DNA of 64,000 bases from Saccostrea echinata (lineage: Eukaryota). A program made the position numbers and the translations under genes. Under the pieces are notes generated by a model. It was not told where the DNA came from, did not search any database, and was given only the letters and a program-made list of their open reading frames with translations. Where the stretch lies: assembly GCF_033153115.1 (NCBI RefSeq), contig NW_026889767.1, positions 62,001 to 126,000 on the forward strand, given 5' to 3'. Positions 30,301-33,300 of this stretch are shown one piece after another. Position 1 is the stretch's first letter, and each line of letters starts with the position of its first letter.

Positions 30301-33300
30301 GGGCGGGTAACGCATACTACCGAGCTATCATCGCTACACACATAAGTTGGTTTTTAAAACGACAAAGAAGCACAGCATTTACACATTGGAATTTTTTTTT
30401 TTTTTTTGAAAAAGTTCATTTTTTATGGTCTCTGGGTCTTCTCTCCATTTTTTTTTTTTTTTTTTTTACAAATGATTGTTTGTTTCTTTGAATTAGAATG
30501 CTTGCAAATAACGTTTGAAAATCATGCAGAGATGACCCAGAGACAGCAAATCTTTAGAAAAACGTGTTTAAAAATGTGATAATTTGTCCCAATTGAATCA
30601 CCTAGCCTATTTTCAAGTTATTTTTTAGCTAATCAAAACACAATATCGGGAAAATATTTCCCTTTCCTATTTCACAGGAACCCGATACATCAAAAGAATG
30701 CTAAAACTTCATGTGACAGAACAATGAAATTTTCACTTTTCAAGTGCACCCAGATTCCTGCCGAATGCCAATCAAAAGCGCCCTCGTTCTTTACGCACTT
30801 TTTCCGAGCCAGTAGAAAAGTAACATCAAATATACAAGACAATACATCATTAATATTTACAAACAGAAAATGCTCATAAAAACAAGGAATAAACGCACTA
30901 AATCTAAGACCACGATAGGAATACTACACGTCGGCCACAATTTTCGTTGTGCCTATTTATGAGTAGTGTAACTGTTCGACTTTAATATTAACTTAAACAT
31001 GCCCTAACCTGCCCGAAAAAATGTTGTAGGAAAATAATACCTTTAAGCTCTTACCTACATTATTCGTGGAAACACTTCCGCTTCCGGAATGTGGGGGTGG
31101 TGTGGTATGTGTTTGCATTGCATTAGGAGGAATACAACACTTCTGTAGAAATCCACAGAAGCTATAAGTATAGCTGTCTCCAACGTGACAATAGTCATAC
31201 AAACTTACACAACGACCATGCAGTGTTGTTGAACATGCTTAAACAAATACAAATTAAATGAAGTTTTAAAAATTGGAATTTTAAAAATTCAGTCATACAT
31301 CGATTGTTCCTTGGGTACATGATTATGTTATGTAGGAAAAATATAAGACATATTTAATTTTCCAGTTACATTCATTTTGGATAATTAGGTATTTTTAGAA
31401 ATACACATCATATAAATTCGTATTCAAGATGGCGGGATAGGGCGCACGCACTTCAGGAATGTCTTCTTGGTTTTGTGGATTTAAAGACGTTTTTGACGCT
31501 CTGGAGTGGTGCATATTATGGGTAAAAAGCGGAAATATAGTGGGCAGCAGAAACAACCAAGAAATAACAAGAAAACAAGTGAAAAAGTCCACAAATTTGT
31601 AAGTAGTAGCGATAACAATAGCAGTGGTGATAGCATAAACTTGAGTAGTACTCTGGCCGAGTGTAATTCAGTGTTGTACGGCGACGTATTGAAAGACTTC
31701 ATATCAGTTACAAATACTTCTACACCAGTGTGTAAATCTAATTTGGCTGAAATAAAAGAAAACATGATTGCACAGAATGAAACAGAACCCTGTCCCCAAG
31801 CGGACATCTCTGCAGTCCAACCTACAACACAGTCAACTATGCCCCCTCCGCCACAAATGAATCCACCCCCTTGGTTTGAAATTATTATGAAAACTATGGG
31901 TACCATTGAAGCAAAAATCACACATTTAGATAACAAAATAACCAATGTTGACCATCAAATGAAAAAGCTAGATCTTGTTGAGAAAAAAATCTCTACATTT
32001 GATAAGAAAATAAATGATATAACAGCGGACTTGAAAAGGGGTTTTGAGGAGAACAACAAATTCATTCGAGAATTACAAGAAAGGTCAGATGGTATGGAGT
32101 TTGGACTGGGTAAGCTAGAAGAGAAGTTAAGTAAACTTGAAGAAGATAATAAGAAACTAAAGGGTGAACTAGTGGATCTAAAGTCACGTTCAATGAGGGA
32201 TAATTTGCTTTTCTCAAATATCCCAGAATCCGAAAATGAAATGCCAAAAGATACTGAAAAAATTCTCCGTGATTTCCTCAAGAACAGTCTGTCAATGAGC
32301 GAGGCACAGGTCAACAGCTTGAAATTTGACAGGGTGCACAGGATAGCTGGAGGTCAAACGCCAAGGGTCATCGTTGCGAAATTCAATGAATATCAACGAA
32401 GGCAACAGGTAAAGGGGATGTCAAAAAACCTAAAAGGTACGAATTATTACATCAATGAACAATATCCGAATGAAATTGTCGCGGAAAGAAAAGAATTGAT
32501 CCAAATCATGAAGAAAAAAAGCGAGGAAGGACATAGAGTTAGACTGGTGTATAACAAGCTTTACATCGACAATAGGCTTTATCGCCCAACACTTGATAAC
32601 AATACCACCAAATAGGAAAACGTCGGGGATAAACTCAAAATATGTTCCTGGAATGTTAATCGACAGATTTATAATAAAATTAGAGACCCAGAATTCATAT
32701 CATTTATTGACACATATGATATTATCTTTTTATCAGAGTGTTGGCTTGATGTAAATACTGAAATTGATGACAGTCTTATTAATGAAAGATTTTTTCACAA
32801 ATGTTTTCCTAGAAAATCTTGTAAAGGTGGAGGTTTTATTCTTATTTACAAAAAAGAATTACACGATAATTTGGTGGTGGAGAGTATTGAACATGAATCC
32901 ATTTTATGGGTGAAACTGCAAAACGGTATTAATGTTCAAAATACCGACCTTTATATTGGATTTGTTTACATACCGCATGAAAATAATGATATTGATTTAT
33001 TTACTACTCTGAATGAGGACATATCAATGTACAAAGAAAAGGGATGTGTTGTACTAAGTGGTGATTTTAATTCACGTATAGGCACCTCATTAGATTTTAT
33101 AGAATATGATTCGATGGGTACAGAGCTGAATAAATTTATTTCACCTGTTATAGATTATAATTGCGATGTTCCATTACCAGAGAGAAAGACACAAGATGTA
33201 GTTGTAAATAGTTTTGGAAGGAAATTGTTAGAACTCTGTCGTTCAACCTGTACACGAGTATGTAATGGTCGTACATTTGGAGATAAGGATGGTAGATATA

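Follow-up and report, generated by a model that had tools for sequence, protein, structure and literature searches.

The element and its reading frames

The DNA analysed here, referred to as the window, is a stretch of 64,000 nucleotides from Saccostrea echinata (contig NW_026889767.1, positions 62,001–126,000, assembly GCF_033153115.1). On its forward strand, at 31421..36310, lies a full-length copy of an RTEX-type long interspersed nuclear element (LINE), in which a single in-frame UAG-G (32613..32616, forward strand) separates the two open reading frames (ORFs) and was identified by sequence comparison as a candidate site of stop codon readthrough. In alignments, sister copies begin at 31421 and stop at approximately 36301–36317; the layout is 5' untranslated region (UTR), ORF1, ORF2, 3'UTR and a CAATA-type tail; a target-site duplication was not confirmed for this copy. 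The 3'UTR also contains a 37-nt direct repeat (36071–36144, 84% identical).

ORF1 occupies 31518..32615 on the forward strand (365 aa counted from the first ATG, in a frame spanning 31497–32615) and holds an L1-type RNA recognition motif (RRM) and C-terminal domain (CTD) at 32181–32588. A Pfam search of ORF1 returned no match, and its family profile resembles the human L1 ORF1p structures 2ykp and 2yko (E 2–3e-6). The frame terminates in AAA TAG (32613–32615) and runs on in the same phase into the endonuclease (EN), exactly as an earlier sequence-only reading of this DNA had described, remaining open to 34556 (646 codons beyond the stop in this copy). ORF2 (32616..36040, forward strand, ending in TGA at 36038–36040) has no start codon of its own and encodes an APE endonuclease domain (~32643–33413) and a reverse transcriptase (RT) domain (~34305–35070), both on the forward strand, followed by a C-terminal domain containing Cys; Pfam places Exo_endo_phos at ORF2 residues 10–266 and RVT_1 farther downstream. 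The earliest in-frame ATG is ORF2 codon 138 (33027), which leaves 137 codons free of ATG and confirms the earlier placement of this codon past the SWN and SECW motifs. Two frameshifts, one near 34.5 kb and the other near 35.57 kb, disrupt the window's ORF2.

An APE endonuclease and RT encoded in ORF2, with an ORF1 upstream, is also the organisation of the RTEX (RTE-X) clade, which is described as abundant in bivalves (PMC10294476). Compared by eye, two stretches of the family L050 RT, 23 and 36 residues long, are identical to Repbase RTEX-10_CGi, as printed together with RTEX-23_SK in supplement 23 of that paper, and the window RT groups with L050 in our RT tree (FastTree support 0.77 at the joining node; the Repbase references lie outside the tree, so the placement is indirect). 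Because of these two links the window family is supported by sequence as an RTEX/RTE-X LINE, in agreement with the initial guess; RTE-X and Proto2 assignments sometimes disagree. Named relatives in protein searches are from bivalves.

Conservation of the in-frame stop

Alignment of family copies had been set beforehand as the test of the junction. Ten DNA matches represent close copies, six of which span the junction (the window and five others, two of them near-identical), and TAG-G is present in all six. Two short relatives of the window family, L366 and L367, have the 5' end fused directly to the 3' end and are internally deleted non-autonomous copies. The search of the window's own genome used three protein queries, one spanning the junction and two confined to ORF1, with 150 candidates scored per query and 140 stretches examined, and yielded 84 distinct junctions with a single stop in the same frame, belonging to 28 families: 83 are TAG-G and one is TAG-A, and TAG is found in 28/28 families. 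Because the five other close copies all keep TAG-G, as do families as divergent as 30–47% protein identity, the in-frame TAG-G is, on this comparison, neither due to chance nor specific to one copy.

A fuller tally covers the 123 places with both an ORF1 CTD and an EN start (ORF1-matching loci without a nearby EN are omitted, and there are a few possible duplicates). These comprise 82 with a single TAG-G, one with TAG-A, four with several stops including TAG-G, and 24 that are frameshifted with TAG-G in either the ORF1 or the EN frame, so that 110 of the 123 carry TAG-G in one of the two frames. The remainder are four stop-free places and eight shifted places that lack TAG-G by the frame rule; among the latter, four have TAG-G at the aligned site, two have a sense codon and two do not cover the site. 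A sense codon stands at the site in six cases (TAT in three, and CAG, AAG and TTG in one each), and each has TAG-bearing relatives; every stop-free copy likewise has a TAG-carrying sister. Copies that are otherwise intact, with ORF1 and an ORF2 of 1,130–1,190 codons, still carry TAG-G.

An outside set was drawn from a scan of prokaryotic genome contigs, which returned 80 loci; judging by their architecture these are eukaryotic retroelements, likely present through host contamination of symbiont assemblies. They include many intact animal LINE contigs inside bacterial metagenome-assembled genomes (L250–L312, mainly JBEVXV and JBHNNM). In thirty-eight loci the contig contains both an EN start and an in-frame stop upstream of it, two are open to the contig end and 40 are without an EN start. 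A frame of at least 150 codons is closed by TAG in 31 of the 38 scorable elements, followed by G in 28, T in two and A in one, and this TAG-closed frame matches the ORF1 profile at 26 of the 31 junctions. The other seven are three elements with an ATG-started ORF2 (L266, L267, L289), L253, L282 and two unclear cases. Classification of L253 as ATG-started was dropped, TAG-C combined with an indel within a run of A being more likely. L282 (JBEVXV010000632.1) is a natural stop-free ORF1-ORF2 frame of 1,487 codons, whose sister L293 has TAG at the equivalent place. In the RT tree (FastTree, midpoint root, some weak nodes) TAG-G is spread throughout, and L266/L267 as well as L282 fall within groups of TAG elements.

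Published consensus sequences extend the pattern. Supplement 25 of PMC10294476, covered here as the first ~400 bases of 25 of its 84 RTE-X consensuses, shows an in-frame TAG-G, by eye, in 5/5 sequences with a visible EN start and preceding stop (three from S. grandis, one from S. constricta and one from P. maximus, that is, three further bivalves); one M. yessoensis excerpt has TAG-C after ORF1, with the EN start lying beyond the excerpt. The main text of that paper makes no mention of readthrough or recoding, although its own consensus excerpts show the in-frame TAG-G. Longer Mytilus proteins containing ORF1 and EN were not used, as they skip the EN start and resemble gene-model joins.

No matches were found in a scan of viral contigs, and a metagenome scan gave nine loci, none with the RTEX junction, in which the full-ORF1 matches bore an IMPACT-like tail. 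Such elements, with an L1-type ORF1 carrying a C-terminal IMPACT/UPF0029-like tail and no TAG-G junction, occur both in the own genome (L201, L202, L210, L211) and in metagenomes (L241–L245), and a relative of theirs, P0022, has PF01205. Three of them (L202, L210, L242) serve as an internal control: their ORF1 ends in TAA, TGA or TAG-A and their ORF2, which we take from its motifs to be L1/Tx1-like, starts at its own ATG. As judged from these comparisons, the in-frame UAG-G junction of the RTEX elements is a real, clade-wide feature.

Nucleotide signals around the stop

For analysis of the junction itself we used a family-level set of 59 junctions, together with 38 ORF2 terminal stops. The ORF1 stop is TAG-G in 56/59 junctions, compared with 2/38 for ORF2's own stop, and is UAG in all 59, while ORF2 stops are TAA in 24/38. 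The linkers between the ORF1 stop and the endonuclease vary from 5 to 308 codons, yet every one is in frame. An ATG precedes the motif-I Asn in 6/59, and 30/59 contain neither ATG nor CTG, GTG, ACG or TTG. The outcomes that could have overturned the proposal, a sense codon at the stop or an ATG ahead of the endonuclease in other copies, are therefore absent at the family level. Right before the ORF1 stop, several families (L047, L059, L086, L057) have a basic motif followed by S/T-P (e.g. KRARKSSTP), which resembles a nuclear-localisation or phosphorylation site.

Downstream of the stop, base and codon-usage counts reveal a conserved G-rich block beginning at +10 (32625..32636 in the window, forward strand), which is the 5' strand of the predicted stimulatory helix. 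In the own genome position +2 is a purine in 24/25 families and +10 is G in 24/25; among the outside elements G occupies +10 in 19/31, inside a G-rich stretch from +7 to +12. At codon +4, Gly is encoded by GGR in 11/11 cases (background 0.43) and Glu by GAG in 10/11 (background 0.16). By these counts the block is a nucleotide-level signal.

Type III readthrough is defined by UAGGGV, UAGGUA or UAGGAU and generally needs a downstream structure (as described in PMC13517186). The context of the junction fits this type, in that UAG is followed by G and by an in-frame ORF without a start codon of its own; the window's UAGGAA conforms to UAG-G yet falls outside the three listed hexamers.

Predicted local pairing of the G-rich block

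The sequence-only reading had also placed a stimulatory hairpin just 3' of the stop. A weak local hairpin that uses the G block (32619..32657, forward strand) is indeed the minimum free energy fold (-8.8 to -9.9 kcal/mol). However, it lies barely beyond chance: z-scores in four sequence windows were -0.86, +0.81, +0.58 and -1.91 (the first and last starting at the stop), and in the best of these 6/200 shuffles fold equally well. Nor is it general. In a swap test, which scores the block of each family on that family's sequence and on those of all the others, the window hairpin ranks 6/28; the mean z across families is -0.24, only 5/28 families fall below -1.5 and the outside set gives p=0.32, and the hairpin was accordingly rejected as a universal stimulator.

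A local partner for the G block does reach p=0.0025 in the own genome by the swap test, driven by three related GC-rich families, and +21..+70 is the best local window in 8/28 families. Pairing of the block with sequence upstream of the stop is without signal (p=0.77 in the own genome, 0.28 outside). We found no local H-type pseudoknot, there being no shared local helix and no conserved first stem, in analyses that did not fold pseudoknots explicitly.

Predicted long-range pairing with the 3' end

When 27 intact elements were scanned in 32 windows, four neighbouring windows around the ORF2 stop reached p 0.004–0.010, and another, at -450 to -300 from the ORF2 stop, p=0.0014. When the block +5..+22 was scored against the region from 70 nt before to 130 nt after the ORF2 stop, the swap test gave p=0.00005 for 20 own-genome families and 0.004 for 18 outside elements, or 0/50,000 for all 38 pooled. 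On this family-by-family test the distal segment is a better partner for the block than the local hairpin. The signal persists in 13 families held out from the scan (23/50,000), under within-clade permutation (6/50,000) and with the strongest five elements removed (37/50,000), and 17 of 18 control blocks were not significant, one reaching 0.046. Taken one by one, 14/38 elements score better than dinucleotide shuffles of their own sequence (p<=0.05); in 10/38, where 2.2 are expected, the distal window outscores all the others among an element's approximately 17 windows.

The predicted helices mostly begin at +8 to +11 (the search began at +8), with a partner some 3.4–3.6 kb away at the ORF2 stop or in the 3'UTR; in a few families the partner is local, 40–60 nt away. 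Matched changes on both strands are seen in the sister families L256/L258/L264, L291/L302 and L050/L069/L207, each register having been chosen by best fit. Two different junction families, L081 and L223, share a 2.2-kb 3' half that is 96.6% identical, likely reflecting a chimera or 5' swap; therefore at least one of their distal anchors is not its family's own, and both were retained in the distal-pairing counts.

In the window the predicted partner of 32625–32636 is a 12-mer in the 3'UTR (36047..36058, forward strand; 8 bp, one mismatch, 3 bp), and in the swap test the block ranks 1/20 with its own 12-mer, at -15.2 kcal/mol. Identity among 3'-end copies is 98.7% in the 12-mer and 88.4% in the 140 nt of UTR that follow; four copies with an overall identity of just 68–79% have the 12-mer without any change. 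A further 18 3'-end copies of this family were examined for compensatory changes, and none of them extends to the junction. The window's clade is split: a local stem is seen in L043, L096 and L098, and a distal partner fits in the window, L083, L140 and L090; taking the better of the two partners, the clade as a whole gives 80/50,000. The common rule predicted from these patterns is a helix on the +10 block whose partner may be distal or local.

Proposed mechanism

We propose that the conserved UAG-G is read through at low frequency, with a predicted RNA helix that starts 8–10 nt past the stop as the stimulator, to give an ORF1-ORF2 fusion of approximately 1,500 aa, and would put the probability of this at roughly 70%. 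Comparison strongly supports readthrough of the stop, as TAG is kept in every family and an in-frame ATG ahead of the motif-I Asn is rare. Most ribosomes would stop at UAG and yield ORF1p, while a few would decode it via a near-cognate tRNA, inserting an amino acid and continuing into the fusion; the helix would sit at the mRNA entry channel and slow termination. Its ORF1 portion would then carry the fusion into the particle, in the manner of Gag-Pol. Because readthrough would need the 3' end, RT would be synthesised only from full-length RNAs, which would provide cis-preference and quality control of the kind proposed for tombusviruses.

A fuller version, for which we judge the odds to be a little short of even, is that throughout the RTEX clade RT is made as a Gag-Pol-like fusion by UAG readthrough that is switched on when the junction pairs, across 3.4 kb, with the 3' end of the same element, such that only full-length RNAs yield RT, in cis, and that from lineage to lineage this arrangement can be exchanged for a local stem, a lost stop or a newly gained AUG.

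Several points weigh against these proposals. All of the support for readthrough and the fusion is comparative. The 31 outside TAG junctions come from six assemblies, 26 of them from one, and the families are related, so that junction counts are not independent events. The distal window was picked after the 32-window scan, and the held-out test with the scan's own block and windows is weaker (1,780/50,000); 24/38 elements fail to beat their own shuffles, and removal of the strongest ten leaves 2,174/50,000 (p=0.043). A two-strand fold of the window favours the local hairpin (0.76, compared to 0.06 for the distal pairing), and within the window's clade significance is reached neither by the local partner (p=0.11) nor by the distal one (p=0.095) when each is taken singly. 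The local stem signal in turn fails in the outside set, where no local window gives a signal. Finally, the distal 12-mer could be conserved for recognition by the reverse transcriptase instead.

Alternative explanations

This last point belongs to a broader explanation, in which readthrough or restart accounts for the conservation of TAG-G and the G block, while the complementarity at the 3' end serves reverse transcription or packaging, or in part reflects composition, and has no role in translation. LINE RTs recognise their RNA near its 3' end, which is where the distal segment is located, and the absence of the distal signal from many elements, as well as the preference of the window fold for the local hairpin, is expected if the pairing is non-translational. 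Against this, the distance of the partner block from the UAG is constant (+8 to +11), families without a distal match (L043, L096, L098) have a strong local helix on the same block, and composition is addressed by the dinucleotide shuffles and the 18 control blocks. We consider this explanation, which is compatible with readthrough, unlikely, though more probable than those that follow.

The main rival to readthrough itself, less probable again, is AUG-independent termination-reinitiation or stop-carry-on, in which ORF1p is released at the UAG and ORF2p is made separately after an in-frame restart, with the helix positioning the post-termination ribosome. An in-frame restart would produce much the same genomic pattern, and the element resembles SART1 and mammalian L1 in having a bicistronic LINE RNA and a low ORF2 output, the latter predicted here; coupled stop-restart with a required structure downstream of the junction is described for SART1, and unconventional reinitiation has been proposed for L1 (PMC5972666, PMC3894237). 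Unlike the present element, however, both are described as using an AUG to make a separate ORF2p, within an overlapping UAAUG in SART1 and after a 63-nt spacer in L1 (PMC5972666, PMC3894237), and no overlapping UAAUG is found at the window junction. Reinitiation also does not explain why the ORF1 stop is invariably UAG when ORF2 stops are mostly TAA, and there is no conserved start codon, about half of the linkers (30/59) lacking even the common near-cognate ones.

An invariable UAG would also be consistent with adenosine-to-inosine editing converting UAG to UIG (Trp) in some RNAs. UAG is a favoured ADAR triplet, and just such a conversion occurs at the amber/W site of hepatitis delta. Yet reverse-transcribed edited RNA should leave TGG copies, and TGG is found in 0/6 sense variants; in addition, the A of the stop is paired with a mean probability of just 0.34 in local folds, and contigs show no overall A>G excess among the differences listed, their RNA status being guessed. 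We regard editing as very improbable, and give an equally small chance to the use of TAG/G as a 3' splice acceptor, with ORF2 expressed from a spliced RNA that has an upstream ATG. TAG/G does fit the YAG/G consensus of 3' splice acceptors, but there is no pyrimidine tract (0.42, compared to a background of 0.43, with >=0.7 in only 1/59), the site is always the in-frame stop of ORF1, and contigs from 4/4 runs guessed to be RNA cross it ungapped with no joint there, bearing in mind that contigs drop rare forms. A nonsense origin of the TAG, in an element that once had a single ORF and has decayed, might be argued from the window's two frameshifts, the 4/123 stop-free places and the natural single ORF of L282, and is refuted by the retention of TAG-G in all 28 families, including otherwise intact copies, and by the TAG sisters of the stop-free copies.

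Relation to known systems

The readthrough arrangement proposed here has its closest counterparts among viruses. In CIRV, the carnation Italian ringspot virus, readthrough of p33 to p95 requires an interaction with the 3' end over approximately 3.5 kb, which has been proposed to eliminate truncated RNAs and promote replication in cis (Cimino et al. 2011, PMC3234231). The RTEX junction is like this tombusvirus system of proximal and distal readthrough elements (PRTE-DRTE) in having UAG-G before a polymerase and a predicted pairing with the 3' end about 3.4 kb off; it differs in belonging to an animal retrotransposon, in its proximal partner being a short block after a spacer of 8–9 nt, with no large stem-loop found, and in that the interaction is predicted. 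Moloney murine leukaemia virus (MoMLV) gag-pol, where the stop is followed by an 8-nt spacer and then a pseudoknot (PMC13517186), shares the type III UAG-G, a purine-rich spacer of about 8 nt, a helix near +9/+10 and the fusion of a structural protein to an enzyme polyprotein, both the helix and the fusion being predicted in our case. Unlike MoMLV, the RTEX elements show no conserved local pseudoknot or hairpin and are without a protease, and their ORF1 is of the L1 RRM-CTD type, not Gag.

Among retrotransposons, Group 3 non-LTR elements of Paramecium have ORF1 and ORF2 in one frame, and readthrough of the ORF1 stop was suggested from their consensuses (Guerin et al. 2017, PMC5405496). These form a separate ciliate clade, unlike the present LINEs, and the suggestion is made there in one sentence that gives no conserved context, structure or test. 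Our literature search found no report of readthrough or of long-range pairing in RTEX elements; Repbase Reports, a possible place of earlier mention, was outside the search.

Elsewhere in the window, two single-frame galactosyltransferase (PF01762) ORFs lie on the reverse strand at 1042–2217 and 7879–9126 and form a tandem gene pair.

Implications for LINE biology

How ORF2 is translated in LINEs has been called an open question (PMC3894237). The RTEX elements offer a clade-wide nucleotide-level signal, together with two short sequence blocks amenable to mutation and compensation. If our interpretation is correct, annotating ORF2 of RTE-X elements from its first ATG cuts off the active site of the endonuclease. 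Readthrough and an ORF1-RT fusion would be added to the biology of LINEs, with a direct mechanism for cis-preference, and long-range RNA-stimulated readthrough, described in the sources cited here for plant viruses, would extend to animal genomes.

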